From positions 124,001-188,000 of the forward strand of contig JALDZX010000017.1 in NCBI GenBank assembly GCA_022813865.1: a stretch of DNA of 64,000 nt. Reading direction: 5' to 3'. The stretch comes from Xylographa opegraphella. Its lineage: Eukaryota. Within the stretch, counting starts at the first letter, position 1. The number at the start of each line of letters is the position of its first letter. The position numbers and the translations under genes were made by a program. Shown piece by piece: positions 5,835 to 47,565 of the stretch. The notes below the pieces were generated by a model. That model did no database searches and was not told the origin of the DNA. It saw nothing but the letters and a program-made list of their open reading frames with translations.

Positions 5835-7290
5835 CTATAGCCTCGACTTCTCGGCGATCATAGCATAACCCTTAGGATACGATTCTACATGACCGAATTA
5901 GCCAACGCGCTACCAGTCGTGCCAAAAGCTCGACGGAAAGCAGCTTACCGAGGATATCCCGATCCATCATCTGCTCGACGTTCTGGAACCCGCCGACGGT
6001 CATCAAGATGTCAAAGTCCGCCAACAAGCTCTTCATCACATGCCTGACGCCCGCCTCTCCCATGATACTGAGTCCCCACACCCACAGTCTGCCGACCCAC
6101 ACGAACTTGGCCCCCAGAGCCAAGGCCTTGCAGACGTCGCTGCCGCCTCGGATGCCGCTGTCGTACATGATGTACGTCTTGTCGCCGACGGCAGCGACGA
6201 TATTCTCCAGCGCGTCCAGCGACGCGATCGCCCCGTCGACCTGCCGGCCCGCGTGGTTGCTCACCACGATGCCGTCCACGCCGACCTCGACGGCCTTCTT
6301 CGCGTCCGCGACGCTTTGGATGCCTTTGAGGCAGAAGGGCTTGCCGCCGCTGATCTCCTTCCACGTCTTGATCAGCCACGGCATCTTGCTCCAGTCGTGG
6401 GCGCGTCCGTGCCACACATTATCGATCCACATTGCGCCGGCGCGCTCGGGCTCCTTCTTCGGGTCGATGCCTGCTGCCGCAAGGCGCTTTTGGAAGACCG
6501 GATCCGTAAGGCCCAAGTCGGCACCGATGCCACGATAGAAGGCGTAGTTGCCCTCCGCGACGTCGTCGTGGCGCCAGCCGAGCTGCCAGGTGTCGGTGGT
6601 GAGGATGCAGACGTCGAAGCCGGACTTGAAGGCACGCGTGAGCAAGCTGACGGCCAGCTCGTCATCGTGGGGCAAGTAAAGCTGGTAGAAGCGGCACCCG
6701 GCGCCGTTGGCAGTGGCGACGTCCTCGATGGCGGTGGAGCCAGCGGTGGAGAGGCAGTAGGGCAGGTTGAGCTCCTTGGCGACTTTGGCGACGGGAAGTT
6801 CGCCTAGCGGGTGGTAGATCTTATTAATACCGATGGGGGCGAAGCCGATGGGCGCGGAGACTTTGTGCCCAAAGACGGTAGTGCTGCTGGTGCGGACGTT
6901 GGTATCGACAAGCTGGCGGGGAATGATCTTATGGCGGTAGAAGGCTTGACGGTTGGCGAGGTGGGTGTAGGAGGAACCAGCGTTGGAGGATGCATAGAGC
7001 CTGGGCGTATTAGATTGCGGAGTATGATGTCGAGAGTGGTGGCATTTTACCATCCACCTTCGGTCAGCTTCTGTTTAGCAAGGTCTTCAAGCTTTCCAGG
7101 CTCTGTAATCAACGAGAGTCAGCAGCAACTCGACAGTATGCGGAAGTTATGGAGGGCAGCAATATAGGCCGGACTTACCAGTGTTGAACAGCGGTTTCTC
7201 GCCATTGTTGATTTTCCAGAAGTTCTCCCGTTGGTAAAGAGACCATTGAGGGGTGTCTCGGTTCTTGCGATTGGGATTGTTGGCGTCCAT
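5835..7290 (-). CDS. FMN-dependent alpha-hydroxy acid dehydrogenase/oxidase (lactate 2-monooxygenase-like)
   Basis: Motifs APIGFAPIG, FYQLY, LKGIQSVADA, GIVVSNHAGRQVDG and DSGIRGGSD..KALALGA. First exon MDANNPNRKNRDTPQWSLYQRENF; last exon ESYPKGYAMIAEKSRL* with stop at 5835-5837. Confidence 0.92.
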
Positions 7291-7921: not shown

Positions 7922-9463
7922 TTATTGTAGTATCTGACTGCTCCCCGAATTGCCACCAATATTGCCAACATTGCTTACAAATACAACTAAGACGGCACAG
8001 TATCTGGAAGGGCAGCAGCTTTAGCGTGGGGCTCTCTGCTTGGGATGAAGGAAACTCCTTTCAACAGAATCGAGCAGATAATGCGGGACGCTTGATGAAA
8101 ACCAGATAAACTCACCCAGCAGCAGCAGCCAAGATCTCGTGTCGTCTCGCCTTGGTGAACAGCGAAAGGATCGCGGAGAATATGAGCGTAGATACGAGAA
8201 GCACGCCTAGACAGGTGGGACTCGTTGCAGACCCATTGGTATTGGTGCTGATGTGGTAAAGGGCCCATATAGGCACTATCAGCACCACCAGAATGAAGCA
8301 GGTTATGATGAAGGTAACAAAGGCATTTATGCGGTCTCTAGTGAAGTAGTGGAGATCAGGATCCGAGGTTTTGGCTCTCGTTTCCTTGTGTCCGTTAGCT
8401 TCACCACGTCTGCTTGTTACATATACAGCAATGTAGAATTTACCTTGGAGCAGAACATACGCTGCGTAGGGATTAGCGTTTCATACCGCAAAACTCGAAT
8501 TTATGATTTTACCTGAATAGGTTTGCAATGACACATCCGTAGCATCCTCTCCACGAAAGCATCTAGGAATGCCGTCTCTCGGCCGGGTCGAAGGGTGATT
8601 AGGTCTTCCTTCTCATAAATGAATGAGGCCTCTGCTTCGAAAAGTGGCGTGTGGTTCTCCATCATGTTGATCACACTGCGATGATCGCGGTTCGCCGGCC
8701 GATTCAAGGAGACAAGTTGCTGTGCTTGTAAAAGCAATTGGCCTGGATGGTGGTAAGAAGTAGTTGCTGTGATTTGAGGGAGACAAAATGACTAGCTCAC
8801 CATACTCCAGCACTTTCTTCTCAATGGTCTCCAGAAGTTGCTTCCTAGAGATAGCATTGGCAGCCAATTCTCGTGCGTTGTCTTTTGTCCTTGACTTTAG
8901 ATACTTCCGGCGGCTCGCATCGTTCCAGTCTTGCCGGTCAACGGCACGAAGGTCAGATTCTAACGCCCGGAGCTCATCTTGCTTATTGAGGAGTAATCGG
9001 GCGTGTAGAAATCCAAAGCGTCGATAGATCATAAAGGAGTCATCACTGTCCAGGTAGCTTGCAACATATGGAAAGCCTTTCGGCGAGTCTTCCACTGTCA
9101 AAAATAAGCATTGCAAGACAGACGCTTTCTACGGCTGGTCTGCATTGGACTGACGTTTCCGTATCAGAATTTTCGACACCCGTCTTCTATTGGGTTTCCG
9201 TACTGATACCTTCCCTCGCAGTTTTGAGGGCAAAGTTCGTATGGCACTCAAAACTGCCGGCCAGAGTCAATTGATATTATCTCACATACTCTCAAAGATC
9301 AACAGGACACACCTTCACGAGGGCTATGCGTGCTGCTAACAAAGGTTGTCCCAGAGCTCAATGTTGGACTGACCGCAGTTTCCTTCTCGCACTGCGAGAG
9401 AGTCACGATTCGACCTTCTTCCATATCGCTGGCCAACCGGCTCGACTGGTCAGAAGCTGCCAT
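7922..9463 (-). CDS. DUF6594-family membrane protein, multi-exon
   Basis: VEDSPKGFPYVASYLDSDDSFMIYRRFGFLHARLLLNKQDELRALE signature. Downstream exons give about 3 hydrophobic helices (AFVTFIITCFILVVLIVPIWALY; LGVLLVSTLIFSAILSLFT; EILAAAAGYCAVLVVFVSN). ATG 9463 lies below a TATATA at ~9517; 5' exon structure is tentative. Confidence 0.8.
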
Positions 9464-10019
9464 GGCTGCGAACGAGGAAAGGCGAGGGACAATGGCACAC
9501 GGGAGACGAGAGGGAGTATATAAACAGTCGAGCCTCGTGAGATCGCTACCAATCCCTTGCCATGGTCATGCACCGGGGCAAGAGGCGCCCGAGGCTCCTG
9601 ACCTTGAAGCGTAAATACTTGCGCGAAGTGGCATGTCTAACACTCCTTACCGAAAGGATACGCTTTACTGGCCTTGGCCACGGTGGAATGCGATCAGCGG
9701 GCGGGAGTGGCTGCTTCGTTGATTGGTGCCAGCTGCGTTAGGGGCGGAGTCCGCTGTGAGCTGGACCGAGACCCTGCGGGAACGCAAGAAGGCAAGGCAG
9801 ATTTTGGAGGGGCGGAGGAATACATATTTCCCGTTGTTGCGAGACGGAACTCCATACATATCAACGAATGAAGGAGCATCGTGAACAGAGTTCGTCCTCG
9901 GGATAAAACACTTGTCCTGAAACACAGACATATACCAATGGCATCCTTCCATAAAAATCTAAATGCTCGTCCCCCTTCCCCAATCCTGCAGAGGCTGACA
10001 TCGCCATCCGCCGACGACC

Positions 10020-10425
10020 TCACCCGTCCTCCAGGTCCGGCTCTGGGACCATCTTGTCATACTTGATGCCATCCGAGTCGGTCACTTCGTAATCCCATCC
10101 CCACCGTTCCTCATTGAAGACCCCTTTCTTCACTTTCATGATCCAATCGAAGATACCGGTGCTGGGATTCTTCATTCGCACCTTGTCACCTGCACTGAAC
10201 GAAGGGTCTCCCTTTCAATACATCAGCTGTCTCCTTTGCTATCATATACGATTGACATAACATCGTTGAGTCTTCGTACCTTTGGCTGAGGTCCTTTGGC
10301 CGCATTGTTATGAGATCTTACGTCCGATGGGTTGTAATTTGCTTCATTCTATCCAATTGTACGTTAGTACTACCTACGTCACATGGAGGGGCGTTCAGAT
10401 CTCGTACTTCATTCGTGTTGGTCAT
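10020..10425 (-). CDS. Small 92-aa SH3/Tudor-like beta-barrel protein, 3 exons (not in ORF track)
   Basis: Exons 10425-10408, 10348-10280 and 10211-10020. Both introns start GTACGA and have a branch site (TACTAAC; GCTGAT) and AG. Product MTNTNENEANYNPSDVRSHNNAAKGPQPKGDPSFSAGDKVRMKNPSTGIFDWIMKVKKGVFNEERWGWDYEVTDSDGIKYDKMVPEPDLEDG*. Confidence 0.75.
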
Positions 10426-10863
10426 ATTGCACGAGTGGAGTGTAACTTTCCGACTTATACACCCAGCAGCTGATGGATTATAAGTATGCCCTGGAGGCGC
10501 AATGTTACACAGGGAGCCTAATATTTCAGGCAATCGGGCAACCACTTCGAAGGGAGAATATCCAATCAGCATTCGGCAGATAGCAAGCGTAGATCGGTCA
10601 GTCCATTCGCGAAACAAGGAGTCCAACATGGTGCCACACCACTGCGGTTGATACTCTGCCCATAGAATTACAAGGAATCTAAATGTTCCAACTGGCTACT
10701 TCGTCACACTCAAGCAAAACTAAGCTCGTGCGATGCCTAGCATGATTATATCCATCAGATTTCCACAACTCCATGCAATGCGAGCCATCCCAAAACGGGC
10801 TGCCTGGGTATCACCTAAAACGAGAAACAATTCGTAGGTACTGCCTCCGATTTTGGGGATCAT

Positions 10864-12444
10864 TTATACAGCATCCATGCCGGACTTGAGCGTGACAAAC
10901 GCGTATAGGAAGGCATACGACGATATCACCGCAAGACCAGCTATGGAGACAAACCCGCGGGCTCCCAGCACCCCGCGTCCTTTATCGGGCAGGAATGCCA
11001 CCAGAGACACCGCTGCGGCCCACACGGCTATGAAAAGCATTGTTCCATGATACAAAATGCCATGATTGATATGCTCGTTCGGGAAATTCTCGTGAAATGC
11101 CTCGTGGACGGTCTGTTTGGAGACAAAGAGCGCATTGTGGCCGGAGGTATATCCGTGTCGCTGCCTCGAATTGAGATCGTCGGCGGGTAAGAGCAAAGTC
11201 GCCGAGGAGCCTCCAGAATTATGGTGCCTGTGTCGACGATGTGATCCAAACAGGGTAAATCTTTGTACAGCTTCTGCCATCATGAAGCGTGGCCAGGAAT
11301 GCAACCCTCCCCACATGATACGATTGACGCGCAAGTCGCGATTCTGCATAGCCTCATTGAGTGCCTTTCCCAGGATCTCAACCTGTGCCTCCGATGGCCG
11401 AGTTTCGAACATGAATTTTAGGTTGAGAAGAACCGCAGCTCCCATGTCGTGCGGACTGCTAAGGCTTCTTGCGCGTATCAAGGAGAGCCTGTCCACATCT
11501 TTCCTGATTGGTTCCAACATGATGTATCCCGCCGAATTCTTCTCTCCACGTTTACTAAGAACCGGTTTCTGGTTATTAGGGAATCCGGGTGCGCCACCAT
11601 TCTTGATCTTGTTTACTAGCTGTTGCGTTGTAAAGGGTCTGCCTTCAGCTACAAGTGCCTTCAATGCCCAGATCAGGGCGGATGTGAACGATTCAGGCCC
11701 AGGTCTTCTTGTAGTAGCTCCTGGGGCTGTAGCCGCAAGGTATTCAAAAGCCCGGGTTGGTGGAGACCGTACGTTCCCAAGATTGCCTGCATAACAACAA
11801 TCAAAAATTTCCAAAACGTCAGCTTGAGTATCTTGGAGAAGATCTTCAGCCCTATTCCATATAACTTTATTCAACTCCCCTTGAACCATACGAGGGGTGC
11901 TTTTGCCGAAGAGCTCCAAGTGTCCAGGCATATGTCCTGGCGTACCGTGACCGGCATAATAGACTATGAGAAGTCTCTTCGGCCGATCCTCGTCACTGAC
12001 GAATTTCGCAACGACGAAATTGATTTGAGATTGTGCTGTTTTCCCGGTGTGTGCTTTCAAAGTGATGTTGTGTATATCATAACAGAATATGTCTTCGAAA
12101 ACCTTCGCGAGCCTGTCAACCTCTCCTTTAACCTTCATATCGTCAAGGGCTTCGTCCCAGGATAGTAGCAGAACTGCGGCCGACTCATACAAAGACGATG
12201 CCTTGTATTGACCCTCCTCCATGACTTTGCTCCATGTAACCTGGTACGAAGAATTGAGCTGCTCGATTTCGTCTTCATAATGGACGATGGAATCATCATG
12301 AGGATGGTGCTCAACGTTGACAGGTGTCACCAGAGGAGTGCCCAGTGGAGATGGTGTGGGTACGATGGTATCGCTCGGCGGATCGCTGGAGGAAGTGCGC
12401 TTGACTTCCATGGTCTGCGTCCCTGCGGTATTCGTGGGCTCCAT
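10864..12444 (-). CDS. Caspase/metacaspase-like peptidase (clan CD, C14-type) with two C-terminal transmembrane helices, intronless
   Basis: 526-aa ORF. AVLLLSWD, catalytic His in LLIVYYAGHG, catalytic Cys in DVLEIFDCCYAG, then FEYLAA and SFTSALIWAL. C-terminal hydrophobic segments MLFIAVWAAAVSLVAFL and FVSIAGLAVISSYAFLYAFVTL. Confidence 0.85.
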   Translation of the reverse strand: MEPTNTAGTQTMEVKRTSSSDPPSDTIVPTPSPLGTPLVTPVNVEHHPHDDSIVHYEDEIEQLNSSYQVTWSKVMEEGQYKASSLYESAAVLLLSWDEALDDMKVKGEVDRLAKVFEDIFCYDIHNITLKAHTGKTAQSQINFVVAKFVSDEDRPKRLLIVYYAGHGTPGHMPGHLELFGKSTPRMVQGELNKVIWNRAEDLLQDTQADVLEIFDCCYAGNLGNVRSPPTRAFEYLAATAPGATTRRPGPESFTSALIWALKALVAEGRPFTTQQLVNKIKNGGAPGFPNNQKPVLSKRGEKNSAGYIMLEPIRKDVDRLSLIRARSLSSPHDMGAAVLLNLKFMFETRPSEAQVEILGKALNEAMQNRDLRVNRIMWGGLHSWPRFMMAEAVQRFTLFGSHRRHRHHNSGGSSATLLLPADDLNSRQRHGYTSGHNALFVSKQTVHEAFHENFPNEHINHGILYHGTMLFIAVWAAAVSLVAFLPDKGRGVLGARGFVSIAGLAVISSYAFLYAFVTLKSGMDAV

Positions 12445-13428
12445 CTCCAGGCGCTATGCAGGTATGTGAGAATCGACGTCAACTCAATAGGCCAATAGAT
12501 ACACAACAAAGGGCGAGAGGGCGAAATTGACAGGACACAAGTCCGTCGTTGGCGCACGCCGAAGAAAATTGTGCGAATCGGTAAGTCGGCGCCATTGTGA
12601 AGGCCTTCTAGCCTTTTATAATATCCACTCATCAACTGAAGGCCATCAGCCTCAGCCTGACAGGAAATGTGCTGCAGCATCCCGTCGTCTGCATCGGGCG
12701 GGGCTATGTTTGGCAAAGAAGGCAAGGTGCGGCTCTTTTGGCCCCCACGATTAAAACTAGTCGTGGAACTAAGTCTTGGCAATAAGGAGGACACACATTT
12801 ACCTGCCTTAGTCAATAATACATTTTAGGCCCGGCCTGTTAAAAAGGATAATGGGGCAAGCGTATCATGATATATAATATCTTTAACACGGCCCTCCTGT
12901 CGCGACTCACCCAGGAGTGGCCGCTTTCGCGGGTCGGCTGTAGTGGCAGGCTCTTGCCCCACGCAAGGTAGCTTTGTAAGGGTTTCCTGCCCGCTCAGCA
13001 AGCCCTACTCCACATATACATGAACAGAGCTTTCAGCTCTGCAGATAAATCATTCTTTCATTATATCACAGTCACCACATTTTCAGCTTGTGCTTGTATC
13101 AAAGTTGATGTATCCGAGGAAGACATTGAATCGCTTCAATTTGTTCATGTTGGTGTATGGCTACCTTGCGACGACCTTCAACGTTTGATGATGTTATAGA
13201 AAACTCGAAGCAAAACGTTAAGACACGGTCGTATGTTAAAGTTGTTGTTATTCGGCACGTCGAGTAAACCGTTTATATAGTTGGGAGTCCGAGAAAAATA
13301 AGTCATTTCCTAAACCTGTATACGTTCAAGTTTAACGCAGCTGATGCTCAGCTACGCCTTCTTTTAAACGAGTAGTTGAAGTGGTGTAGAGACTCGCTTC
13401 TCGATTCCCTCTCCTGTAGCTATCCTAG

Positions 13429-13537
13429 CTGCATGTTCACTCTTCTGTGACAGACTGCATATCCACTCTCATGTGGCTGGCTGTATGTTCAATCTCATGT
13501 GTCTGACCGCATATTGACTCTTATGTGGCAAGCTGCA
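13429..13537. repeat. Degenerate 26-bp tandem repeat, 4 units
   Basis: Units start at 13429, 13455, 13481 and 13507: ctgcatgttcactcttctgtgacaga / ctgcatatccactctcatgtggctgg / ctgtatgttcaatctcatgtgtctga / ccgcatattgactcttatgtggcaag. Confidence 0.85.
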
Positions 13538-14025
13538 GCACCATGCGGCCATTCTACGATCATTTGGCAATCAGTTCTTCTTCTGTAGTATTGGTAACAA
13601 GTAATATTCCGGTTTTAGCTGCTCCCTAGTCGTCGAAATAGTGTATATAGCCGGGACGGCTGGCTGAATATTGATAGTGTCAAATCGTGGCTTGCGGTGA
13701 ATTTTAGCTTAGGGAGCTACGGATATATCGCTAGGATATGCGAGTTGTCGCATCATGTACTACATAAATAACCGGTGTTGTATGTTCAGCCAGCCACAGA
13801 TTAAAATGGTGCGGCTTGCTCAGACCTTACACCATGCTCGTTAAATGTAATCTGCATTGGCAAGATGACTATATGTGATTTTCAAGGAAGCGACCATGGC
13901 ATGTATTGCTTCTGTTGCTTGTACACAAGATCCAGCCCACCACTCATTAAAATTTTTCAACGTATTGCATAGATTGCGAAAAATCCTTAGAAAACCTAAT
14001 CAACAGGTATCTCATCATATTCATT

Positions 14026-15307
14026 ATGGACCCATATCAAGCCATTCTCTTCAAGTTAGCCGGCATGACCACAGCTCTCGTTGGGGTTATTTCCAGCCAA
14101 ATTGAGCAATCATTGCCAGCCATATCAGCTGATGAGCTCTTGGCTTTGGAAAGAGTAGATGGAAGTCCTGTCGATCTCGCGTCTGATCCCCGCAGACGCA
14201 AATGTAGGCGTCTCAGGTTTTCTACAGGCACCCCAAGATGCTAAGGCGCAGCAGGCCAAATCGGGAATCAATGTCGAGACTTCCAGGATAGGTTGAAGAC
14301 TCTGAATGATACAGTCAGCGGACAGATAAACGCTCTGAACAATTTCATACCGACAAGCACAGAAAACTTTAATGCCGCCGCCGGATCCGCTTTCAATTGC
14401 CTACAGGCCCTCACAGCTAAAATGCTGCAAGTAGCTGATGGTGATAAGAAGCTAGACCTTGAAGAACATGACCTCGGGCTTACTCTAACAAGCACGCGAG
14501 GAAGTTTCCAAGCGCTGGTCCAGACATGTCAGGATGTCTACAAGCAGTTGAGTGACCAAGCAGCAGCGCTTGCTCAGCAAGAGAGTTATAACGACCGGCT
14601 CAAGTTGGATATCCAAGCAAAGAACCAGGAAATCAAAGCGGAGCAGCCAGGTGTTCTTGACATGGTGCGTGTCGACGTCCAGACAGCAAGCCAACTGGAG
14701 TCCGATGCCAATACAACAAGGGACCAGTTATCCAGTGCTCAGAATGACGCGAACGTAAGTGCTAGCGAACCCATTATAGGTTTAAACTTATATTTCTCAG
14801 AGTATAGGAGAAAGTTTGAAGGTGTTTTTCACTGGGAGCGACAACGATCTTAACAATCGAATTCAGAGTATCGAAGATACACTTCGAAATCAGGAAGATG
14901 CTCGAAATCAAGCTAGAGAGCAGGCTATCAACCACTATCAGCTTTACGTCGGCGAGACCACTGCTATCAGTGTCCTGGACGACTTCCTTGCTCAAGTTCA
15001 GACAAACTTTAACATGGCTAGCAATGAATACGACGATCTAATGGGCAGCAGAGGTGCCGCGGACCGTACATTCGAATCGATCAAGCTTTTATGCTGGGAC
15101 ATTGAGAACTCGCAGGACAGCGCCACTCGCGATGCGTGTCTGAAGCATGTGCTGCATCTTTTGAATGGTTTGTCGCCACCTCTGGATCAAGTAGCCGCGG
15201 TGGTTGCCGCGAAACAGGAGATTGAAGCTCAGATCAAGGGTGTGCTCGGTGATGGCAAATTTGAGAAGTTGAAAACGGCCCAAGAACCTCCTGCAGTAGA
15301 CATGTAG
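14026..15307 (+). CDS. Alpha-helical coiled-coil protein of ~395 aa (candidate 'A' component of an alpha-pore-forming toxin), 3 exons
   Basis: Introns 14204-14251/14254 (GTAGGC..GCTAAG..CAG) and 14755-14800 (GTAAGT..CAG) join ORFs 14026, 14293 and 14816 in frame. Q/A/L/D-rich heptads with a short amphipathic turn, SIGESLKVFFTG. Confidence 0.75.
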
Positions 15308-16523
15308 TTTTCGTCCTCGATATTCCTCGCAATGAAAATCTGCAAAGTCATGATAAGTCGAAAACGTGTTTAAGAAAATAATCATAATCTTCATCGTTCG
15401 TAGCTCACGCCTATAATCGAACATACTGAAAATTCTAAACCTGAGCCAAAGCCCCGATGCGGTAACATGCTCTGAGGTTCATGCGATAAATTCCACGGTC
15501 TTTTCCCAAAGACATATTCTAGTCTTCTAACCTGTAGTTGCAGTGTACAATTACCCTTTCGTCGTAAATATACGCACCACCTCCTTGCACGCACGCCTCC
15601 GACTCGTAGCGAGGGACACGGGATGCAAGTAAACTGCAATTATTCTCCGATGCACTTCTTGCAGGACCTTTCCTGCATGATCTGGAATGAGATTGCATTA
15701 AGGTGGTACGGAGGCAGATTTCATGGGACCGAATACGCTGGTTGTCGAGGACTGCAGCGGGATAATCTGCAGTCCAAAGACCTTTTGAGGGTCCAGACCC
15801 CGTGACGGAGGCGCCACAGAATACGAGCTATCTTAATGCTATTCAAGGTTAATCAGTCCTTATTCAGGTCGGCCGTACCCCGCTGTCAGCCAGCCTCACC
15901 CGCCCTGAGCCGCCGTACGAAGGTACTTCAGCTGTACTCCGTAGGTTCGATGTCACTAACGCCGATTGCGTCTTGCGGCCACAGTGCTGAGGTGGTACGT
16001 CCAGACTAGTTGACTCACGTTGGGATGTTCGCGATCCTTCTCTGCTTTGACAATTGTCGGCTATCACATTCGAGACCTCTTGGTGGCTGGCTGAGTTCCA
16101 TCCACGACAGAGCTCGAGGCGCTGTGAACCCGGCAAGTCTTGCAACACTGACGGACTTCTCAACTCCTATCCTATGGCTTTATCAGGATTTTCAATATCC
16201 TACATGACCACTGTCTGTTTCAGTCCTTTGGGGCAATCGCATGGTTCAATGAAAGCCATGCTCCAAGCTATTGTCCCGCGTCAATGTGATCCACCTTGTT
16301 CTGGATGTGCGCAATACCATTAGCATGTTTTTTAGCATCTCTTGAAACGGTTCGGAAGGTCTTGATCTTGCCGATCAAGTCTGCTGATAATGCTTGCTCG
16401 CATTGTATATAACTCGTCCGCCCCGCTGAACTAAAGGCCTCGTAACGTCAGGATTTGAGCCTCCATTGATAGCTCCTCAGAAAACAACTCAGCTCTCAAG
16501 TCGATCTTGTTATACAAGCAATC

Positions 16524-19226
16524 ATGTCAGAATCCCCAGCTGATAAGCTTGCAGCGGTGCAAGATGCGCAAGACCAGCGCCTCAAGGACAAGTACAATGG
16601 CAAAGCCGGCAAAAAGTTCGTGACCGATGTTAAAGAGTCACTCCTTTTCCAGTCCAACTGGTCAGACCTGTTATCAGCCGCTCCAATTGCCTTAGAGCTA
16701 TTGGGCGCATGCTTTGTTGCGGCGTCTGCTCCAGATGCAGACTCGATTCTACTGACCGAAGCGGTACCAAAGGAGGGATGGAAGTGCCTTAAGTAGATCT
16801 TCGAGCCTAAGCTGTGTGCCCAATGTACTGAGGCCATCTAGTAATGTTCGAGACCCTTCTCTCCGAGCATGTCTTATCCAGATCACCAGCCAGGGACGAA
16901 TTACATTTGGTACAGCTGGAGTGAATATGTCAAAGATTGCTGAGACATCCAGCTCGATAAATGAAGTGGTTAGTGTTACTACCGAAACTGTTTGGCAATT
17001 ATTAAATCATTTTTCAGGTTTCCAATGTTATCCGAGCCGTTCAAGCTATTTACCAGCCAGGCATGAAAGATTATCTTGACAATTTTCTTCAACAGCTCCG
17101 TGACCAAGCAAAAGACTGTTGCGATTATTCCGACGAGATTGAAAAGGCATTCGATACCTGGTTGACAATGGTTGCAGAGCTTCATACAGCTAGCGAGCAA
17201 AAGTCTGGGGCCGTTAGTGCAGAGACATCTACCAATCTCTCCGCACAAATTGCTGCGCAAATTCAGCAGCAAGGTGCGTCGGAGATGCTAGACAGCGCTA
17301 AACCGGCAGCAGATCGTGCCAAAAAGTCCCTAGATATCGCCGAGGATAATTTCAAACAAGCTAATGAAGCAATACCAAGTCGTTAGTTCTTCTTTACTGA
17401 TTTCTTGAACACCCACTAATTGGGACAAGCTCTCGTTACTATGGGTATGCAGATTTTGCAGTCAGCTGTAAGCGCTGGTCCAAAATTGATCGCGGCGGCT
17501 CTACCGGCTGTCATGATGGCAGCAGACCCAATGACAGCGCTTGGGCCAGCGCTTGGAGCCATGGGCAAGTCTTTCGCTGTTGGAGATGCACAAGGTGCAC
17601 CGACTGTGGCACAAGGCGCAGCAGCTTTACTGTCAGGGCCGCAGGTACTGCCGACTGGAAACGATGATCCTGGTTATCAGGCAGCATTGCATACTGAGCC
17701 TATCATGACAAGCCTTTTCTCTTACTTGACCGAAGGAAAGAACAAGAGTATTGACTGGGAGAAGTTTCACGACAAGGCAGCTGGTGGTGATGGCAAGACG
17801 CCAGTGGGTGTCACTGCGATCGAGACTATGTTAACTATGGCAAAGAAAAATGGAGGGTTGTCGAACCAGCCGCCTTCCGTTGATGTTTCGCAGGCTATAG
17901 ATTCCTCACTTTCGGTAAACTTGATAGCAATTATAATCGATCAATACTGATATCTTTAGGTCCTTACGGAGATTGGAAATGCGATCAAACAGCAAAGTCA
18001 GCTTACCTCGGATGCCGTCGGAGAAGACACAATCAAAGGCTGGCAAACCAAAATCAAAGAAGCTGAAACAACTGTCACAAGGTTGAGCACTACGCTTTCG
18101 ACCGGTCCAGCAGCTTCAAGCAGTGTGCCTACTATAGGTGATATGAGAGCACCAGCGCCCAGCGATGACTCAAGTGGTAAGACGGTATTCAAAGAAAGTT
18201 TGAGTTGTTTGAGCTAAAGTATACAGCTTGTGCCTCTCTGGATATGGCCAACAAACGTCTTGCGACAGATCAACAAGCCTTGAACAATTCGCAGAAAAAC
18301 TATGAAACGGCCATGGAACATCAAACTCAGGCAATTAGTGATTTAGCAGTTGCGCGTGGCAAGCTTGCGGAGCTCAAAGCTACAGCAGATACTCTTGTAA
18401 TTGAAACATCGATCCGGAAACAAGAGCTTTTGTGCTAACACGTTGTAGACGCATGTTAATGCCGTCTTGATTAGTTGTATCAATCTCCTTGTGCAATTAA
18501 AGGTGCAGGTCGGCAAGCTTAAGCAATTCTTTGCTGCTATTCATGCAATGATTGATGTCGTCGTTCGAACCAGAGTCAACAGTTTCGATAAGGATATTAC
18601 CACTCTCGAAAATGTCAGTTTAAAGTCTGGCGGACTCACGATCAACAACTTGACTCAGGAGGCAAGTCGCTCTTTCGTATGACATAACGCATTGATTCTA
18701 ACATCAAGCAAGACAATATATACTTCTACACTACAATTAAAAGCCTATTTTGACCTCCTGCATGATATCGCAGGGATGTATACACAGATACATACCCAGC
18801 ACATCACCCAGGGAGTTGACCTGGTCGACATGTTGAGTCGAGAAAGCAGCCCAGCTGAAGTGACTCAAAGGCAACAAGACCTTGAGAAGTTTGCCGATAA
18901 TGCTGGAAGCGCAATCAAAGATCTCTGCACAAAGGTATAGCCGCATACCATCGAGACATTCATCCCGAATCCGAATAATGCCTCAGTTACTGACTGATTC
19001 CTGCCATCAGCAACAACGTCAGGTGACGGAAGGCCTACAGCAGCGCATTACGAATATCGCGCAGAGCACCCAGATGTTGGAGAGCGTAGGAGTTACAATG
19101 GACCCGAAGTCACTGGCTGCAGTGCAAGCTGGCGCGGCCAGCAACACGCAAGCCGTGCAGGCTGGATTCGACGAACACAAGGCGCTCAAGAAGGATCTAT
19201 CGCAAGACTTTCTGAGTGTTCCATAA
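16524..19226 (+). CDS. 760-aa helical-bundle protein with central hydrophobic Ala/Gly segment (candidate ClyA/Hbl-like toxin), 9 exons
   Basis: Exons 16524-16792, 16842-16968, 17018-17381, 17430-17914, 17960-18176, 18227-18396, 18449-18661, 18713-18934 and 19011-19226 splice in frame (2283 nt). Motif NWSDLLSAAPIALELLGACFVAAS, long coiled coils, and hydrophobic LVTMGMQILQSAVSAGPKLIAAALPAVMMAADPMTALGPALGAMG. Confidence 0.85.
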
Positions 19227-20256: not shown

Positions 20257-23200
20257 TCACATACCCAAGAAATCCTCTGCTCCACCAACATCATCCATGA
20301 CGTTCGCCATGTGCAGATCCATCTCCATTCCTGCCTTGATCGCGTCCACCATCTGGGCCTGCCCGGTCGCAGTCACTCCCGTTCCATTTTCCATATCGAG
20401 CAGCATTTCGTTGCCATCGACAGCCACTGCTGCATCCATGGCTGCATTTACATCAAGATCCGCTTCGATTTCACCGGGGGTACTACTCCCTCCTTGAGAC
20501 TGCACTCTCCGATGCAATCTCACAATTATTTCTGCTCTTGCTGCATCGTGCTTACTTAGGGCGAATGCACCGTTGTAAGCGGACTGAAGAGCATGCCGCA
20601 GTGAAAGCCTCTCGCGTCCGTCATTCGCAGTAGGAGCACATATCAGCGCAGTTACGATATCGAGTACCACATCCGCCGCTTCGTTTGCAGCATGCTTCAA
20701 TGTCATGTCAAGCAAAGACCCAAGCACGACTTTAGCGCCGAGCATAGTCGCCGCTGTCAGCAATAGCCGGTGGGTATAATTCGGCGGGGCTGCATTCGAC
20801 ACGCCGGTCGTGCTCCAATTGACAAGGGCCATGATAGAGTTGTATAATGACGAGAGTATGCTGCCGCCTGGCGTGCCACACCAGCTCTCAAGCTCAGAAG
20901 CCGATGTGGCAGTGTTGCGTGGGTGCCGGATTCGGCTTTTGAGAGTCGTAAGCAGAGACTCGATGTCTTGACGTTTAGGATGGAGCTTTTGAAGTGCGAC
21001 GAGAGCTCTGTCAAGAGGCACGGTGGTGACTGCAAGAACTGCCTCATGCAGAGAAAGTGCGTCAGATGATAGGGATGGTGGATGGACCAAGAGGGATAAA
21101 GCAGGCAAGAGTATCGAGAGCGATGTAGTAGAAGTAGATAAAGGAGTGAGCAGGCGACGAGTTGACCAAGAAAGACCTGCTATCAGGGATGGAAGCAGGA
21201 ATGGCTCGAGCAAATCTAAGGCGCCGTGATATTAGTAGCGAATTCAAAGCATAGTCCGCGGGTTTACGAACACACAGGAATATAAAATGCTTTCTCCTAT
21301 TGCGATACTTACATTCAAAACCGCCTTTCAATGTCTCCAGACCAAGTACTCCGGCTTCACAAGCCTTTAGACTTTGATCAAACAGGGTTGCGACCAGTAA
21401 ATAGAATTCCTGCGGACCACATGTGGATATTAGCTCATCGCTAATACCTTCTGTCTCAAAGAGACCCTTGATCCAGCCGCCGAGGTGCATCTTCTCTTTG
21501 TCCGAAAGCTCGCTAGGGTCTCTTGAGATACATCCTCTTCGAATGTACTTTAATATGAAGGAGTCAGCATAGCTGATGCCCAATTCGCTGTCCGGCAAAT
21601 TGAAATGTTGACGAAACACTAAGACAAGTAGGAGAATACTACCAAATTCGTCGTATACAGGTTGGTGTTCCCCTATCATATAGTTAGCAGAATGCAAGAA
21701 ATATATATATTTAATGCTTACCTTGATCCTCATGAACCTGCCAATGGTCTAGGAGCTCACAAAGCGGCTGGAGGATAGTACTTGGTTGGCAGAAGATCAT
21801 CAAGACGTTCAGTGCCCGAGACTTGCGAGAGAGTGCATTGCAAATAATTTTGAGAGTCATGGTATCTTTGTTGTTACATAAGCTCTGCAAGATCTGTCAA
21901 TTTGGTGTTAGTCGAGAGCTTTCGATATTGTCACCTCCGATCTTTATTCATATCTATTTATGGATAATGGTTTGAGGGTGACAAACCTCGACCAAAGCTC
22001 GGGCTATTTCAGCGGCGTTGCCTTCCATATTCTCTAATTCCCAAACGAACTCCTCTATTTTGACAGGATTTGCAGTACATTGTGCCACAAGATCGGTTTT
22101 TTGATATTTGCCACCTTCTGGTAGACTTTGCATTGGAACGTCTCCAAGAATAGACTCGATCGACTGTTCTGGTATGAGACCATATAAAGCACACGAGAAG
22201 AGGAATTCGGCACGGGCTTCGGAGAGCATACCACTGCTGTCGAGCAAGTCAAATGACTGGGTGGAGTAAGGATCAGCCGGGGGATCCATTCGACCTAGAC
22301 CTTCCGCTATGCAGGATTCAATGTTGTAAGGTGGAAATATCATTGTAGAATATGATTCGAGCAGTACAGGTAGTTTGTTAGTCAAAAACGAACGATAAAT
22401 AAAGATGCCACCGTTCGACTCCGCTCGATTGATAGCATTAGCAAGAACATCAAACGTCGCCGTAATGAGATCAGTAACCAGAGTAGGTATGCCACCCTGC
22501 TGCCGTCAGCGATAACCGGGATATCTCTTAATCCCATCGACCTACACTATAGCGGACATTAAGATATTTGAATAGTGTTACGTCGTTGAAAAGAGGTCTT
22601 CCAATAAGCTACCATTGATCAGAGAAACAATGGACATGACACGAATACAACATACCATGGCATTAATGTATATGTACAGAGCTGCTCTAGTGATAATCAG
22701 TGGATTGTCTAGTACATTCTCTTGATAAGCTAGAGAGTCTAAGTCCACCCCTTCAACCACCGCATTGCCGAGTACGTTGACAGACTCATCATGGAGACCG
22801 GATTGCTTCTGCAGAATGTCTAACGCCTGACCAAGTTGTGCATTAGATGGCGATATCAGAACAGTGAACGGTGGCAAGTATCGGCTGAACCAGGTCTTGA
22901 GATCTAGAAATCATCAGATTGGTGAAGGACATAGATATATTGCCAGTAATAGACTGCAAAGATACCTTTCGGAGGGCCCCCATCTTTGCTTGTCAGAAGG
23001 CCAACCTTTGAGAGCTCGTTAATGTATGCGCCAACGTATTGGCCAAGAGCATTTCCAATTTCAAGGAACGGTCCTTCAAGAGGAATAAGATGCTCCAAAG
23101 TTTGGGTGAATGTCGACAGAAGAGAAATCAATGGCTTTGCAACATGAAGAGTGTCTATCCGCTCAGAGGCTGCGGTAACAATAGCTCTTCGTTGGATCAT

Positions 23201-23563
23201 TTGAAAGCTGAGTCTATCCAAAACCGCGGCTTCTGTGCTTCGTCCGGCATGGTCATTGAGGCCATTCTCTCCAAAAGCTCCAATCTTATTGAAGTCTCGA
23301 GCGATGCTTCCCAATACTTCAGCATCCGTTAGAACACCACCCTGCAGAAGCAACTCGAAGTAGCAGAGTAAGCGATCCTGAAGGCGCGCACTGCCATGTC
23401 TCTGCTGTATCCACGCTTGATATATGAACCTGCCGCTCAGTGGCGACCGAACGCTTTGCGCCCTGAGTTCGTGTGGAAATTTACCAAATTCGAGGTGATC
23501 GAGCATGCATCTGGAGAAAAAGACCCTCCAGTTCTCGATCTTTTCGACGTCCTTTGCAAGCAT
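20257..23563 (-). CDS. MED5: Mediator of RNA polymerase II transcription subunit 5 (Nut1), multi-exon
   Basis: Motifs [86 protein letters not shown] and PPNYTHRLL. Confidence 0.9.
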
Positions 23564-35299: not shown

Positions 35300-36060
35300 A
35301 ACATCTTGACGATCTCAAACCGTCACGTCCAGTTTCACTGGGATCTTGAATTCTTACTTTTAATACGTTTAACTGCCTTGCTAGGATCTTCTAAGATATC
35401 AACCTTGGGTACCAATCTTGACGAACACCAATTGTCACGTCCATTTCCCTCGATTCCACGTTCATTGCCCGTGCTACACATCATAGCCTTCGCAAAGAAC
35501 ATTGGAGATATCAGCCTTCCTCACGAACCTTGATACATCAACATCCGCTACGAGCTTTGACGAGCAGTAGTTGTCACATCCATTTTCACTGAATCCAGAT
35601 TCACCACCTTTGGCCTTTGCTACGCGTCATTGCCTCCCTAGGAACCTTACAATATCAGCTCTTGTCACGAATCTAGAGCATATCAGCCTTGGCTACCAGT
35701 CTTGACGAGTATCAATTGTCGCGTCCATCCTCCCTGATTTCAGATTCACCACCTTTGGCCTTTGCTACGCATCATTGCCTTTGCCAAATTCTTGAAGACA
35801 TTTACCTCCTTTACGAGCCTGCACGATATCAACATTCGCAATACGAATTTGACAACCACATCGTCACGTTCAGTCTCAACACAATTGCCTCCGCCACGAA
35901 TCTTGACTCTCACAACAAGCTTTCCTACACCTCTTAACGGATACGAATTGTCACATTCCATCCGATTATATCCAACATCATTGGCTTTCCTACATATCCA
36001 GACGATATCAACATTCAATACGAATATTGACAATCTTAAATCGTCACGTTCATCTTAATT
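35300..36060. repeat. Degenerate ~140-147-bp tandem repeat array with dyad core TTGAC(G/A)A-N5-7-YYGTCRC
   Basis: Cores at 35306, 35418, 35557, 35702, 35849 and 36027. The identical 30-mer cagattcaccacctttggcctttgctacgc occurs at 35596 and 35741. Confidence 0.8.
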
Positions 36061-36147
36061 GAACCCAGCATTGTTGCTTCGTTACGCATCATTTCCTCCG
36101 CTACCGAATCTCGCCTTATGTCGATCATACCACAGAGCTCCGTAAAT

Positions 36148-36772
36148 ATGAATATGAACAGCTCTCCTGCGCCTCCCACCCACCTCGCAGTACACGGCTC
36201 TGCCGTCGTGGCTGACGGTGGAGGTCAGTATTAACCTTTCTCGCTCGCAATACCTGTTCTCATACACTTCAACAGAACTCTCCCTGTCCGCGTCCCTATC
36301 CGCCTCATCCCCCTACTTTGTGGAGGGTTACGCCGGGGACCTTTGGGTCCCCAGGCAACCGGGTAAGTCCAATTACCATTTCCATCTGGCGTAAAGCGCT
36401 TCTCTAACGTGACCCAACAGCCTATCCGACCCTCGAACCAGGCAACAGGGCATATAATGCCACAGGTATATCTCCGTGCCTCATCCCCTCGTCGATCTCT
36501 AACACGAACTCAAAGTCCGAGCCTGCCTTACGGCCACGGCTGTCCCTCCTCTCCCTCACTCTCCTCCTCTCCCTCACCCTCCTCCTCCGCCGCCAACCCC
36601 GCCACCACCAAGACCTCCTCCAGCGCTGCCCGCCCCAGCACGCTTCATCTGCGGCCTCTGTAGCTCTGGCTACACGCGAAAAGTGGACGTCAAGCGTCAC
36701 TTCCAGACGGTGTGCGTGCCGAGGGGAAACCCCTCGGGACTGCAGTGGGATTCGAACCCCAGCTGCAGGTGA
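36148..36772 (+). CDS. 154-aa proline-rich protein with C-terminal C2HC-type zinc finger, 4 exons (not in ORF track)
   Basis: Exons 36148-36223, 36276-36362, 36421-36465 and 36516-36772. Three phase-1 GT-AG introns (GTCAGT, GTAAGT, GTATAT; CTAAC branches in introns 2 and 3). Ends PPPPPTPPPPRPPPALPAPARFICGLCSSGYTRKVDVKRHFQTVCVPRGNPSGLQWDSNPSCR*. Confidence 0.7.
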
Positions 36773-36991
36773 CGCCCGGGGGGTGGAGAAGGGGGAAGGG
36801 GGGGTAGTATAGCTTGCGTTTGGGCGTTTTGCGCGTTTTTTTTTTTTTTTGGGGATTTCTTGATTTTTTTGTTTTCATGGCACATGTGTGTTGAGGGGCG
36901 TGTCCATTGTGGGGCCACTATATGTGGCCGCGCAGAGGGCGTGTTCTTGAGGATCCAAGGGAGTTGCAATGAGCATTAGAGGGGAAGGATG

Positions 36992-37026
36992 NNNNNNNNN
37001 NNNNNNNNNNNNNNNNNNNNNNNNNN
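36992..37026. other. Assembly gap (N run)
   Basis: Run of n characters. Confidence 1.
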
Positions 37027-37568
37027 GGTGGTAAGTACTTCTGAGACGTCACTCAACGAGCCATGGCTTCTAGAGCAGTGCAACCGAGCTCTAGATTCCA
37101 CTTCGGTTTTCTCGAGAGGGAAGCGGACTAACTCCCGTACAGTATGCTACGCGAAACCTACGGCCTCCACACCACCACAAAACAATAACCGCAACTCGCT
37201 CGTCCGTGCTTTCGGCGGGGGCCATCCACATAGCCAGCATAGATAGGGATTTCCGAAACACAAGCATACACGCCAGTTGCCGGACATATATCGTTGCCCG
37301 ACGCTCCGATCTCCAGTTCTCATGAGCCCCCGTGCCCCCTTTGTCATAGGTTAAGTGTGGAGATGGCCACTATCGGCGTACGACCGGGTTATCGAGCCAG
37401 CGACCCACACATCTTCAGCTGCGGTCGCACATGTATGCTATCCAAACCCCAGACAGACAGACAGACAGACCGAGAGAAATTTTGATGGCCCAACAACCCT
37501 CCCCCTCTCTCTTTCGCACCTCACCACCACACCGCAATCCTACCCCCCCGACACCCCAACCCAAACCA

Positions 37569-39479
37569 CTAAACCCCAACCACAACCCCCCCACCACTCC
37601 CCCTCCCGCCCCCCACCTTCCGCGCCCTCATCTTCCTCGCCCACTCACGACTCGCGACGCGACCCCGCTCCGCCGCCTCAGCCCTCGCCTTCCTCGCCGC
37701 GTCCTCCTTCTCCCTACGCGCCGCGTCGCGCGCCTCCTGCTCCGCGAGCGCTCGGCCAAAGACTTCCTTTCCCTTAGACGTCGCCGGGCCGGCGAGCGAA
37801 GGCGCGCCCCGGGGGGCGGACGTATTGGCTCGCACGTAGGACGGGCCGTTCGGCGGTGGTGCGATACTAGCGCGTTTGGTAGTCGCGGTGAGCTGGGCCC
37901 CGCTGGATGCGACTGACGAGGTGCGTGCAGCTGCGGTGGTGGCTGGTTGGGACGGCGTGCCTTCTTCCTTCCTGCGCGCGGCGGAAGCGCCGTCGTTGGA
38001 GCCCTCGCCGCCGCGCACGAGGCTCATGCGTGCTCTGCTGGCGGCTGTGCCTCGGACGACGGGCGCCAAGCTCACTCGGACGGGCTGGGCTTTGAAGTCG
38101 CGCTTCTTGCTGGCCTGGTCTTCTGCTTCTTCGCGCGCGAGACGCGACGCGCGCTGGGCTTTGAGCTTCTGCGAGATGGCGTCGCCGGGGAGGGTGAATG
38201 TTGGACGGGTGGGTGCTTTGGTGGAGCGTTGGGGCACGAAAGGCGGTTTGGAGATGGAAGATACCCGCGTATGCTTCTTTTGAAGCGTGGTGGTGTTGAC
38301 TGCGGGCGTGGTCGTCACCGTTGGCGTAGTATCTGTTGTTGGCTTCGCTGGCTTGGGGGCAAGAGCAGTATTATTGGCTGTTGAGTGCTTCGCAGCAGTG
38401 GTGCGCGGTGTTGAGCTGAGTCTTGAAGTGTTGCTGGTCTTGAAAGCAGAACGTTTGATTGGCGCCTTTCGCTGAGTTTCCGGAGTAGGTTTCTTTGCAG
38501 CAGCTGTTCGCTTGACTTTGCTTGATGCTGCTGGCGACTTCTTCGTGGTCAAGAGAGTGGGAGTGGCATCTTGGTCGCTAGCAACGGGCTTTGGGCTCTT
38601 CTTTTCAGCATGATGTACCTTGACGGGCGACAGTCGATCGTCGATGATGATAGGGATGGACTCGGTGATCTGCTCGATAGCTTCTTCCAGGGCATCTATA
38701 GCCTCCACTGTGTCTTCGATCCGCATATTTGTTCTGACCGGTGATCTTGTGACAATGTCCCCAACAAACGAGTCGTCTTTGTCGGCAGTCCCCTCCTCCT
38801 CAATGGTAGACTTCTCAAGTATTTCTTCACCCAGCGTCGGACTATGAGCTACGGCCGCAGGGGTGCGGGTACCGATGTTGTTGACGAACGAGTCCTCAAC
38901 ACCGACACCTGAATTTTCCTCCGTCTTTGGTGTCTTGTGAACTTCGGGGTCGAAGCGCGGTGTATGTGACCTGGGCGACAGCTGCTCGAGCGCAGCTAGC
39001 ACCGCTTTCGAGGGTGGTGTTCGCGGCCGAGAATCATGCACCGGATCCCGATATGTCTCTGCACATTGCCCCCCAGGTCAGCGTGAAGCCGAGAGTCTAA
39101 CGCGATGTGGAGCGTAGGGTTTACCTCCAGCCTTCCCTGTCAACAACTCTTCGCAGGCCTCTCCGGCGGCAGAACTCGCACTGCTTTGATACGGATCCTC
39201 GAGTATCTCCACCTCATTCTCCGAATCAACTTCGTTCTTCTTGCGCCCCTTTCTGGTGCCCTTGGCTTTCCGACCCTTGCCAGCGGCCTTCTTCCCTGGC
39301 TTGACCGCATCGCCTTGCTCCGCCCCACTCACAGCGTCTCCGTTGAGATTCCCAGCAACCTCACCAAGCGGTGTGCGACTCACTGTTGGAGTGGACGGCA
39401 GTGGGGTCGCGGCCGCCAGATGGGCCTCATCATCCAGGATGGCGGCTGTGCGCAGCGCGGTGCGTGTAACCCGAGGCAT
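37569..39479 (-). CDS. Fungal basic low-complexity protein with TPX2-like motifs (candidate microtubule-associated protein), 2 exons
   Basis: MPRVTRTALR..RTPLGEVAGN. Intron 39059-39124. RIEDTVEAIDALEEAIEQI; KPPFVPQRSTKAPTRPTFTLPGD; DFKAQPV; RKARAEAAERGRVASREWA. Confidence 0.75.
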
Positions 39480-40509
39480 AACTGTGGAAGCGAAGCTATA
39501 CTCGGTAAATATATGTAAGATCCAAAGGTCGGGTGCGGAAGGGTGAAGCAAATCTGCCTATGTACGGTGAAAGAAGCAAGTGTATGAATCCGATTGTTGC
39601 TGTGGTTGATAAACACGAGACGCCGTCTAGGTTTGTTTACATTCGGCGTCTAAGCGACGGCCGCTAAGCCTTATAGCCCTGACGCGCCACCCTTCTAGCG
39701 TGTCCTTGGCGAACGTTTGGTAGCTAACCAACGACTTCCTCGAGCATTGATGTGATACTATCAATTGCACCATCTCTCCGATACAGCAAGACCACGAGTA
39801 CGTGTTCCAGACCTGATTCGCAGTGTCTACTACCAGGCAGCAGCGCAAACCCAGATAAGTTGACTCATAGCATCGTGACACATACTCCGTAAGGTAGTAG
39901 CCTCCCATTGCGATCTCGCATCGATTCTCCGACCACAGTATCGCCTCACTCCTCAAGCACAACACCGCCAACACAGCCTACACATCATATTGGCCCTACC
40001 CTGACACTGCTCGGCAGACTTCTAGGTTTCCCAGTGACTACAGGACCCGTGGACATATTGAAGGTAATTAACCTAGGCCGGCAACCTCCATATTGTAGCA
40101 TGTAACAAGCCACCACCTTCCCTGACACCCTATTTCATCTGCCCTTCAACCCCCCCCCCCCCAAACACCTACGAGCCACCACCTCATGAACCAAGCCAAG
40201 GCACACAAACACACCAGCCCGACCATCGAAACCCATTCCACCCCTTCCCGCCTGCGACCCAGACACGGCTACCTCCATCTACCCCCACCTCCATCCAGCA
40301 CACCCCACCCCCCGGCGATTCGGGCAGAGCGCGGGCGCGAGGGCGGGTCAGATGGGGCTAGGGGAGTGCGAGAGGCAAGTGAGAAGGAAGCACAGTTCGA
40401 GAGCGAGGTATACCACGCCATACATACATATTCCACCCGCATACAGATGCGTACTTCTAACGAGAACACTCCCACCCAAGACCATAGATACATCACCATC
40501 TATACCCCC

Positions 40510-40550
40510 CCCCATTCCCCATTCCCCATTCCCCATTCCCCATTCCCCAT
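40510..40550. repeat. (CCCCATT)n heptamer microsatellite, ~6 units
   Basis: ccccattccccattccccattccccattccccattccccat immediately 3' of the YPI1 stop codon. Confidence 0.9.
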
Positions 40551-40567
40551 CCACCCACCCAACCCGC

Positions 40568-41308
40568 TCACTTCTCCAGCACGGTACCCACCCCCCCAGC
40601 CCTCACCTTCCTGCTCTTCTTCATCCTCTCATACGCATTCCCACTCCTCCGCCTCGCCTTCTGCTGCCGCGCCTGGGCGTGCGCGCACCCGTCCACATGG
40701 TGTCGCTCCGACGCCCCTTCGTCCGTCGCATCCCTCTTGCGCGCAGCAGCACCACCAACATCCGTCCCACCACCCTCATCCCCCACCCCATCATCATCAT
40801 CCGACTCCGACTCCGACTCCGACGACGAGGAATCCGATTCCGAAGACGACTCCCCCACCGCGCGCGGCTTGTGGTAGATGCAGCAGACTAAACCACACAC
40901 ACACAGAATGACCGTATTAGCCAAGCCAGGTCAAATCACTCCCCAGCACGCAACCCACACACTCAAAAAACCGGAGTAGAAACATAAGAGCTCTGCCCTG
41001 TTCTCAACAATAACCCCCCCTCCCACCCTCCCCCCCACGCAACCCATCAACAACGCACCAACGCACATACCTTTACTACTCTTCCGGCCCAGCCCCTCAT
41101 TATCCACCACGTCCTCCGCCCAGCGAATGCCCCTGCGCGGCGCGGCGGCGGCGCGCAGGCGCAAGGTACCGATAGGGACAGGGGCGCGCCGTGGCGGGGA
41201 GGTGCTGTCAATGGTGGTGGTCGTCGTCGTGGTTGTGGCCGTGCCGGCGCCGGCGGTGGTGGGGAGCGGGATGGTGGCTGTGCGGGTGGCGGGCAGAGAG
41301 GGCGGCAT
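40568..41308 (-). CDS. YPI1: Protein phosphatase 1 inhibitor-3 / Ypi1, 2 exons
   Basis: [48 protein letters not shown]. Intron 40888-41070. Confidence 0.92.
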
Positions 41309-47300: not shown

Positions 47301-47565
47301 CCAGCAGGCTAGACGCCTAAGCGGCTACCCATCACTTGCCTGAAAGTCGTCTTGAGTCACACCAGCACTCCCCAAGGCAATAGCTTCTGCTTCAACGCTA
47401 TAAACTCACTCCTTGCCTTTTCTCTTCTCTTCACATATTTCTTTCAGTTCCTCCCTCCGTTTACCTCATCCTCATCCCACGCTCTTGACATCCATCTCCA
47501 ACATCACGAGCAGCCGTTGTTCGAGATCTTTCGCCGCCCCCCCCACCCCAACCAGATTGAATCCG

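Follow-up and report, generated by a model that had tools for sequence, protein, structure and literature searches.

Do the five genes packed between a flavin mononucleotide (FMN) oxidase gene and the Mediator gene MED5 in the lichen-forming fungus Xylographa opegraphella form one system, and what could their products do together? The block lies in a stretch of DNA of 64,000 nucleotides, which is referred to below as the window. Three of the genes are found on the minus strand and encode a protein of the DUF6594 family (PF20237 in Pfam), a small protein and a caspase-like protease of the Peptidase C14 family (PF00656, called C14 below). Two further genes, numbered 4 and 5, lie in tandem on the plus strand and encode long helical proteins. 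The original prediction took all five for a cell-death module in which the protease processes a membrane effector. The reading preferred here, which as a whole is given an even chance of being correct, is that the real unit comprises three genes and not five, namely those of the membrane-anchored caspase-like C14, of a soluble protein of about 60 amino acids and of a DUF6594 protein with three transmembrane helices, and that the protease acts on DUF6594 or together with it. The conclusion that this trio is a conserved functional unit is held with high confidence.

The trio is undescribed as far as full-text searches for DUF6594 and PF20237 reach, neither term being named in the approximately 8.4 million full texts searched. 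The gene names Bcin02g01150, BCIN_02g01150 and W97_08941 were not mentioned in the literature searched.

Co-location of the trio across fungi

The genes of C14, the small protein and DUF6594 stay next to one another in deeply diverged lineages of the Pezizomycotina. Six named genomes occur in the lists of both families, and in four of these the C14 and DUF6594 locus tags are exactly two apart, the contigs of each pair being equal in length. The four are the lichen fungi X. pallens (MMC27_001250 and MMC27_001252), Lambiella insularis (MMC13_003887 and MMC13_003885), Trapelia coarctata (MMC30_001528 and MMC30_001530) and X. bjoerkii (MMC18_005090 and MMC18_005092). Further pairs of C14 and DUF6594 were found on contigs of equal size, P0013 with P0123 (12,683 bp) and P0040 with P0134 (30,267 bp). 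Furthermore, three of the 116 C14 homologues (P0033, P0073 and P0106) also carry PF20237 in a fused gene model. In P0033 and P0073, both from Teloschistaceae, C14 is followed by a homologue of the small protein and then by DUF6594, which is the gene order of the window.

A metagenome scan with the C14 alignment yielded 52 loci, 20 of them with a C14 match at E<=1e-24. Collapsing L010, L011, L012 and L014 into one locus and L002 and L003 into another left 16 distinct strong loci. DUF6594 was located 0.7-2.3 kb from the C14 match in 12 of the 16. The other four have flanks of at most 2.8 kb, too short to tell, and the small open reading frame (ORF) is present on three of these. A thirteenth case, L028, falls outside the E<=1e-24 set; here DUF6594 stands beside a truncated C14 match (tblastn E 1e-11) where the contig ends, and this is the one locus among the 32 others to carry DUF6594. 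Within the positive loci, no DUF6594 was found in the 129,527 bases lying more than 4 kb from C14.

The small ORF was traced with a hidden Markov model (HMM) seeded from the window and two fused models and then rebuilt from the first matches. Its best match lies directly upstream of DUF6594 and on the same strand in all 13 loci. The match reaches E<=1.2e-3 in ten of them, and in the remaining three it is weak but occupies the expected place. Seven loci outside the training set gave E values from 1.8e-9 to 3.8e-4. On two short contigs, the small ORF was found directly upstream of C14.

The position of this pair relative to the protease gene varies. The small ORF and DUF6594 are co-oriented with C14 and downstream of it in L005, L006, L008, the L010 group, L013, L016, L017 and the window. 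They are divergent from C14 in L001, L004, L009 and L018, convergent to it in L015 and upstream of it in L028. The C14 proteins of the trio loci differ at 53-73% of aligned positions. Recurrent co-location had originally been expected for all five genes; as far as these data reach, it was borne out for the trio and failed for genes 4 and 5, which have no homologue in the 52 C14 loci.

Three different trios (L006, L011 and L016) come from records with one accession prefix, and for several lichen fungi the homologue list contains two or three C14 paralogues; the trio may be multi-copy within genomes. A more distant C14 relative, with 27-30% identity, occurs in L024, L025, L026 and L030 without DUF6594 or the small ORF, and it has conserved neighbour ORFs of its own.

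The three proteins and their possible interplay

The window protease matches PF00656 with a modest 26.1 bits (cut-off 21.4, E 8.4e-6), which places it in the Peptidase C14 family of Pfam; its fused homologues score 25.2-33.3 bits. It is 91% identical to the X. pallens protein and 89% identical to the X. soralifera protein. After a disordered N-terminal part of about 50 residues, the chain forms the caspase fold (~70-315) and a small alpha/beta domain (~340-403), and it ends in a hydrophobic tail. The AlphaFold model, built on an alignment of 42 sequences, has a mean predicted local distance difference test score (pLDDT) of 70.1, and most of the core is at 85-97. Among the best 500 Foldseek matches, 344 reached E<=0.001, the top one being the Yca1 metacaspase (4f6o, E 8.5e-9). 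Comparison by VIA gave Z 19.0 to MALT1 (7pav_B, 204 aligned residues, root mean square deviation 3.3), which is tied with the values of 18.2 for caspase-9 and 18.0 for Arabidopsis metacaspase 4 (AtMC4). Identity to solved structures is 9-17% among the listed fold matches. The protease clearly has a caspase/metacaspase fold, and its His/Cys dyad is conserved. When 42 of the 116 homologues were combined into a profile, no caspase or metacaspase was matched among PDB sequences at E<=1. Assignment to the type I (Yca1-like) metacaspases by sequence kinship was rejected on account of this missing profile match and of the tied fold scores of metacaspases, paracaspases and caspases.

The catalytic residues lie in the motifs AGHG (from residue 164) and DCC (from residue 215), which close strands 157-164 and 209-215 of the model. 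In the same 42 aligned homologues, conservation reaches at least 90% at H166, C216 and C217, and D215, directly before the Cys, is invariant. Both the intact dyad and the two membrane segments named in the original prediction were recovered. The segments are C-terminal, at residues 463-488 and 497-519 by Kyte-Doolittle hydropathy and as helices 461-483 and 496-521 in the model. Outside the fused models, 29 of the 116 homologues carry a hydrophobic segment at the C-terminus; the same holds for five of the eight co-oriented loci. An origin of the tail as a DUF6594 remnant was rejected, hhalign of the tail against the DUF6594 membrane region giving a probability of 2%.

Residues 340-403 (window positions 11236-11427, minus strand) form a small beta-alpha-beta-alpha domain C-terminal to the caspase fold, which is conserved in the family with the consensus ...VxRIxWGGL..., and this domain is the junction where the fused gene models join. 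Two C14 proteins of the same clade are annotated with other partners: P0090 from Coleophoma (800 aa) as fused to a protein kinase domain, and P0104 from Apiospora (774 aa) under the name homeobox-containing. The C14 protease domain may be combined with varied C-terminal modules.

The exons of the DUF6594 gene were mapped by tblastn of the orthologues P0119, P0120, P0121 and P0125 and of the fused P0033 and P0073. The resulting product agrees with the predicted minus-strand protein in its start coordinate and in its three membrane segments. Individual window exons match PF20237 with E values of 1.7e-21, 1e-11 and 3.8e-20 and span positions 1-99, 84-155 and 155-231 of its 238. In the orthologues and the fused models the match extends over the whole profile (1-238, E 1e-58 to 1e-63), and they are full-length members of the family. 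The DUF6594 protein has a helical, soluble N-terminal part, and three hydrophobic helices close the chain. Modelling of the X. pallens orthologue P0119 gave an entirely helical structure of moderate quality (mean pLDDT 66, predicted template modelling score 0.36). Its best Foldseek match had an E value of 0.95, and its best Z among 48,161 chains compared by VIA was 8.5, all matches being generic antiparallel helical hairpins over residues 73-162. The family profile retrieved tropomodulin alone from PDB, at E 0.02.

One motif of this protein, EDLxTLRPGRE, is of particular concern here. It sits between helices in the segment 196-206, where pLDDT is below 50. An alignment of 30 homologues shows no exchange at D195, L199 or R203 and at least 90% conservation at P201 and G202. 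The motif is present in eight distinct C14-linked loci and in the window. In a separate annotation from Vezdaea aestivalis (P0150, 775 aa), DUF6594 is fused to RNase H (PF00075) and Cauli_VI (PF01693), probably because a retroelement gene was merged into the model.

The small protein had been described as a 92-residue beta-barrel protein, for which a small barrel of the SH3/Tudor-like kind would be a candidate fold. The splice model, in which the first exon is uncertain, gives 66 residues, encoded by the frame 10020-10214 and a short upstream exon. Its conserved core of about 57 residues follows the pattern KF..GdKVWl...W.Y.lkd.nG...wv.E..L, and homologous segments are found inside the fused models P0033 and P0073. 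No Pfam family was matched, and the best PDB match of its profile, YdhK (E 0.1), was not significant.

Direct interplay between the protease and DUF6594 is rather likely. With C-terminal anchors in both, the N-terminal parts of C14 and DUF6594 would be cytosolic, so that the two proteins could come together at the cytosolic side of a shared membrane. In metacaspases, an Asp directly before the catalytic Cys gives specificity for Arg or Lys at P1. The window protease would be expected to share this preference because the invariant Asp215 precedes its catalytic Cys. Such a specificity, together with the invariant and probably exposed RPGR loop, would make the loop EDLxTLRPGRE the most plausible place for a cut in DUF6594. 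Cleavage could switch the membrane protein to another state or set free its helical N-terminal part, and the small protein might regulate or adapt this step.

These parts of the mechanism differ in strength. A role of DUF6594 as the cleaved substrate is proposed tentatively. The output could be cell death or a signal, cell death being doubtful. In its boldest form, the proposal would make DUF6594 a new class of protease-controlled membrane effectors, whose RPGR loop is cut by the tail-anchored protease to give a damaging or signalling form, with the small protein as a safety catch. It would represent a gasdermin-independent, caspase-like death or immune pathway across lichen-forming and other Pezizomycotina. 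This form is speculative and must be considered unlikely.

Several observations weigh against an action of the protease on DUF6594 or against the strength of their link. As the sequence profile of the protease matches no solved caspase or metacaspase, its specificity is unreadable from homology. The RPGR loop is kept in all 30 aligned DUF6594 proteins, some of which may have no C14 neighbour, and may be a general feature of the DUF6594 family unrelated to the protease. DUF6594 already bears membrane helices, unlike the known executioners that pass from a soluble form to a pore. In two Leotiomycetes, the listed genes are not neighbours: Mollisiaceae sp. has C14 as EG329_011520 and the listed DUF6594 as 001392, and Botryotinia globosa has C14 as EAF00_010961 and the listed DUF6594 as 009135. 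In both, the listed DUF6594 may be a paralogue. The linkers of the fused gene models are not conserved, and these models may be annotation merges, which would show the same gene order regardless. Finally, the distances of C14 and DUF6594, near saturation over the 13 loci, were only weakly correlated in a Mantel test (r 0.20), a value reached by 570 of 5000 permutations.

Other explanations of the neighbourhood

The best-surviving alternative, still unlikely, is that DUF6594 serves as a membrane scaffold or anchor and the small protein as an adaptor, both positioning or regulating C14, the targets of which would be other proteins. The annotation of the protease as fused to DUF6594 in three species fits such a role, and domain fusions mark stable partners more often than enzyme-substrate pairs. 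The C-terminal anchor that other C14 homologues bear themselves would likewise be expected if membrane placement is needed. However, self-anchored proteases, that of the window included, keep DUF6594 adjacent, and anchoring alone is therefore insufficient to account for the link between C14 and DUF6594.

It is distinctly unlikely that the trio reflects shared regulation only, that is, a common promoter region or chromatin domain serving, for example, a stress response, with products that have no physical or proteolytic relation. The evidence for the trio is one of co-location, and the weak co-divergence of C14 and DUF6594 is in keeping with such an arrangement. Yet the link outlasts changes of order and orientation among proteases as divergent as those of the trio loci, and fused models exist. 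Outside functional clusters, fungi seldom keep the same genes as neighbours, which also speaks against regulation as the sole bond.

Could C14, the small domain and DUF6594 be parts of one multi-domain gene, or, in a weaker version, could the small ORF and DUF6594 be one gene? The fused models P0033, P0073 and P0106 would fit the former. The small ORF always lies close to DUF6594 and on its strand, and a donor-like GTGAGG site overlaps the stop codon of the small ORF in the window. Nevertheless, three genes are indicated rather than one, because the small ORFs stop just past the conserved core (1-10 codons beyond it in all 15 informative cases) and because C14 lies on the opposite strand in the divergent loci. 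The latter is also true of the convergent locus. Moreover, the C14 ORF closes with the conserved hydrophobic tail and a stop codon, the DUF6594 orthologues have a conserved start exon of their own, and locus tags place one gene between C14 and DUF6594 in four genomes. A single gene is thus very unlikely.

The five-gene system originally proposed, in which the protease would activate the products of genes 4 and 5 as alpha-helical pore-forming effectors, must be considered very improbable, the adjacency and common divergent interval of about 1.6 kb in X. opegraphella and the hydrophobic stretches of both proteins being outweighed by the absence of these genes from the C14 loci elsewhere.

Genes 4 and 5 appear, from these comparisons, to be lineage-restricted neighbours and not members of the trio. 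Gene 4 had three matches at E<=0.001 among 1.84 billion representatives, the window's own protein included. An exon-based search for gene 5 found a sole relative, MMC11_000882 of X. trunciseda, on a contig of 215,834 bp; the C14 orthologue of that species, MMC11_004932, is on another contig (83,517 bp). No gene-5 relative is listed for X. pallens or X. soralifera, the species whose C14 orthologues are 89-91% identical to that of the window. Paralogy of genes 4 and 5 was rejected as well (BLASTP E 1.6, hhalign probability 0.4%).

The description of both proteins as toxin-like was not upheld in the form in which it was given, since its basis is a pair of sub-threshold leads. In a language-model search, both proteins retrieved one bacterial cluster, named 'putative Enterotoxin' and with Bacillus_HBL (PF05791) on 30% of its members, the two scores being 0.83 and 0.88. 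The threshold line is 0.9 and both queries had low recognition values, so that the cluster is a lead only. Gene 5 also retrieved unnamed Ascomycota clusters at 0.98. No match was found in Pfam at E<=5, PF05791 included, or among PDB sequences at E<=10, and PADLOC had no match for any of the five proteins. Like the ClyA and Hbl toxins, the products of genes 4 and 5 are long, helical, encoded in tandem and provided with an internal or terminal hydrophobic stretch (a single N-terminal segment, residues 6-24, in gene 4; residues ~255-325 in gene 5). They differ from these toxins in the missing PF05791 and PDB matches and in the length of gene 5, about twice the usual size, and they are unlinked to the protease elsewhere. 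If true, a ClyA/Hbl-like protein pair in a lichen fungus would be a separate finding.

Relation to known systems and layout of the locus

The closest known kind of system is the fungal gasdermin-protease cluster, of which HET-Q1/HET-Q2 of Podospora is an example. A 2025 review (PMC12881547) states that protease genes accompany more than 80% of fungal gasdermin genes in clusters and that some of these proteases have a caspase-like CHAT domain; the trio resembles that portion of the clusters in having a caspase-related protease. Recurrent co-location of a protease and its partner, as seen in protease-executioner clusters, was found for the trio and not for genes 4 and 5. In contrast to the gasdermin clusters, the trio protease is a single C14 domain with a membrane tail and not a CHAT or S8 domain with TPR, WD40 or ANK sensor repeats. 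Its partner is an integral membrane protein without a known structural relative, and a further conserved small gene is present. Pfam scans of all exons and proteins of the five genes revealed no gasdermin, HeLo, HELL or SesA domain and no other known executioner domain.

Like the metacaspases and MALT1 of clan CD, the trio protease has the caspase-hemoglobinase fold and a His/Cys dyad. The Asp directly before the catalytic Cys is a further likeness to metacaspases. Unlike all of these, it has a C-terminal membrane tail and the additional alpha/beta domain of residues 340-403, and neither a metacaspase prodomain nor the death and Ig domains of MALT1 were seen in it. The clusters of an NLR with an amyloid-controlled HeLo or HELL protein, such as NWD2/HET-S, are likewise fungal units of two or three genes with a membrane-targeting partner, according to the same review (PMC12881547). 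The trio differs from them in that Pfam scans found no NLR, HeLo, HELL or amyloid motif in the block, and control would be exerted by a protease and not by templating.

Those conserved fungal neighbourhoods that are understood mark functional units, including metabolite clusters, NLR-executioner pairs and gasdermin-protease pairs. The trio holds through rearrangement and deep divergence and provides a first functional context for DUF6594. It further draws attention to one particular clade among the caspase-like proteases of fungi, with candidate partners. If the protease processes DUF6594, this would be a second, gasdermin-free coupling of a caspase-fold protease to a membrane protein in fungi and would bear on the long-standing question of the role of fungal caspase relatives.

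All five genes were found where they had been placed, flanked by FMN_dh and Med5 (Table 1). The divergent interval, measured from the C14 start to the gene 4 start, is 1581 nt. The NCBI protein MMC26_003184 and the product of gene 5 are identical (100%).

Table 1. Positions of the trio genes, their notable segments and the adjoining genes in the window
Feature	Position	Strand	Basis and remarks
DUF6594 gene, 5 exons, 346 aa	7922..9463	minus	PF20237 at exon level, tblastn of orthologues; exons 9463-9313, 9094-8801, 8742-8513, 8384-8116, 8018-7925; stop 7922-7924
Motif EDLITLRPGRE in DUF6594	8576..8608	minus	Candidate protease site or binding loop
Small-protein gene	10020..10305	minus	Splice signals, homologous segments in fused models; ATG at 10305; putative exon 1 10305-10280; intron 10279-10195; exon 2 10194-10023; stop 10020-10022
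C14 protease gene, single exon, 526 aa	10864..12444	minus	PF00656
C-terminal hydrophobic tail of C14, residues 463-519	10888..11058	minus	Kyte-Doolittle and model; two predicted membrane helices
Catalytic dyad stretch of C14	11794..11949	minus	His166 codon 11947-11949; Cys216/Cys217 codons 11794-11799
Gene 4, helical protein of 394 aa (P0155)	14026..15307	plus	Neighbour, apparently outside the conserved trio
Gene 5, helical protein of 736 aa (P0117 = MMC26_003184)	16524..19226	plus	Neighbour, apparently outside the conserved trio
FMN-dependent dehydrogenase (FMN_dh)	5872..7053	minus	PF01070, E 6.8e-102; one flank of the block
Mediator Med5, several exons	20257..23563	minus	PF08689, E 1.8e-26 on ORF 21062-21733; extent approximate; other flank

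Farther along the window, positions 36000-54000 have a higher G+C content (0.54-0.59) than the rest (0.45-0.50). Most long ORFs of this block, at 37569-39077, 40126-41551 and 43764-46355, are without a Pfam family. A highly reducing polyketide synthase is encoded at 51995-59692 on the minus strand, with KS, AT, DH, methyltransferase, ER, KR and ACP domains in consecutive ORFs.

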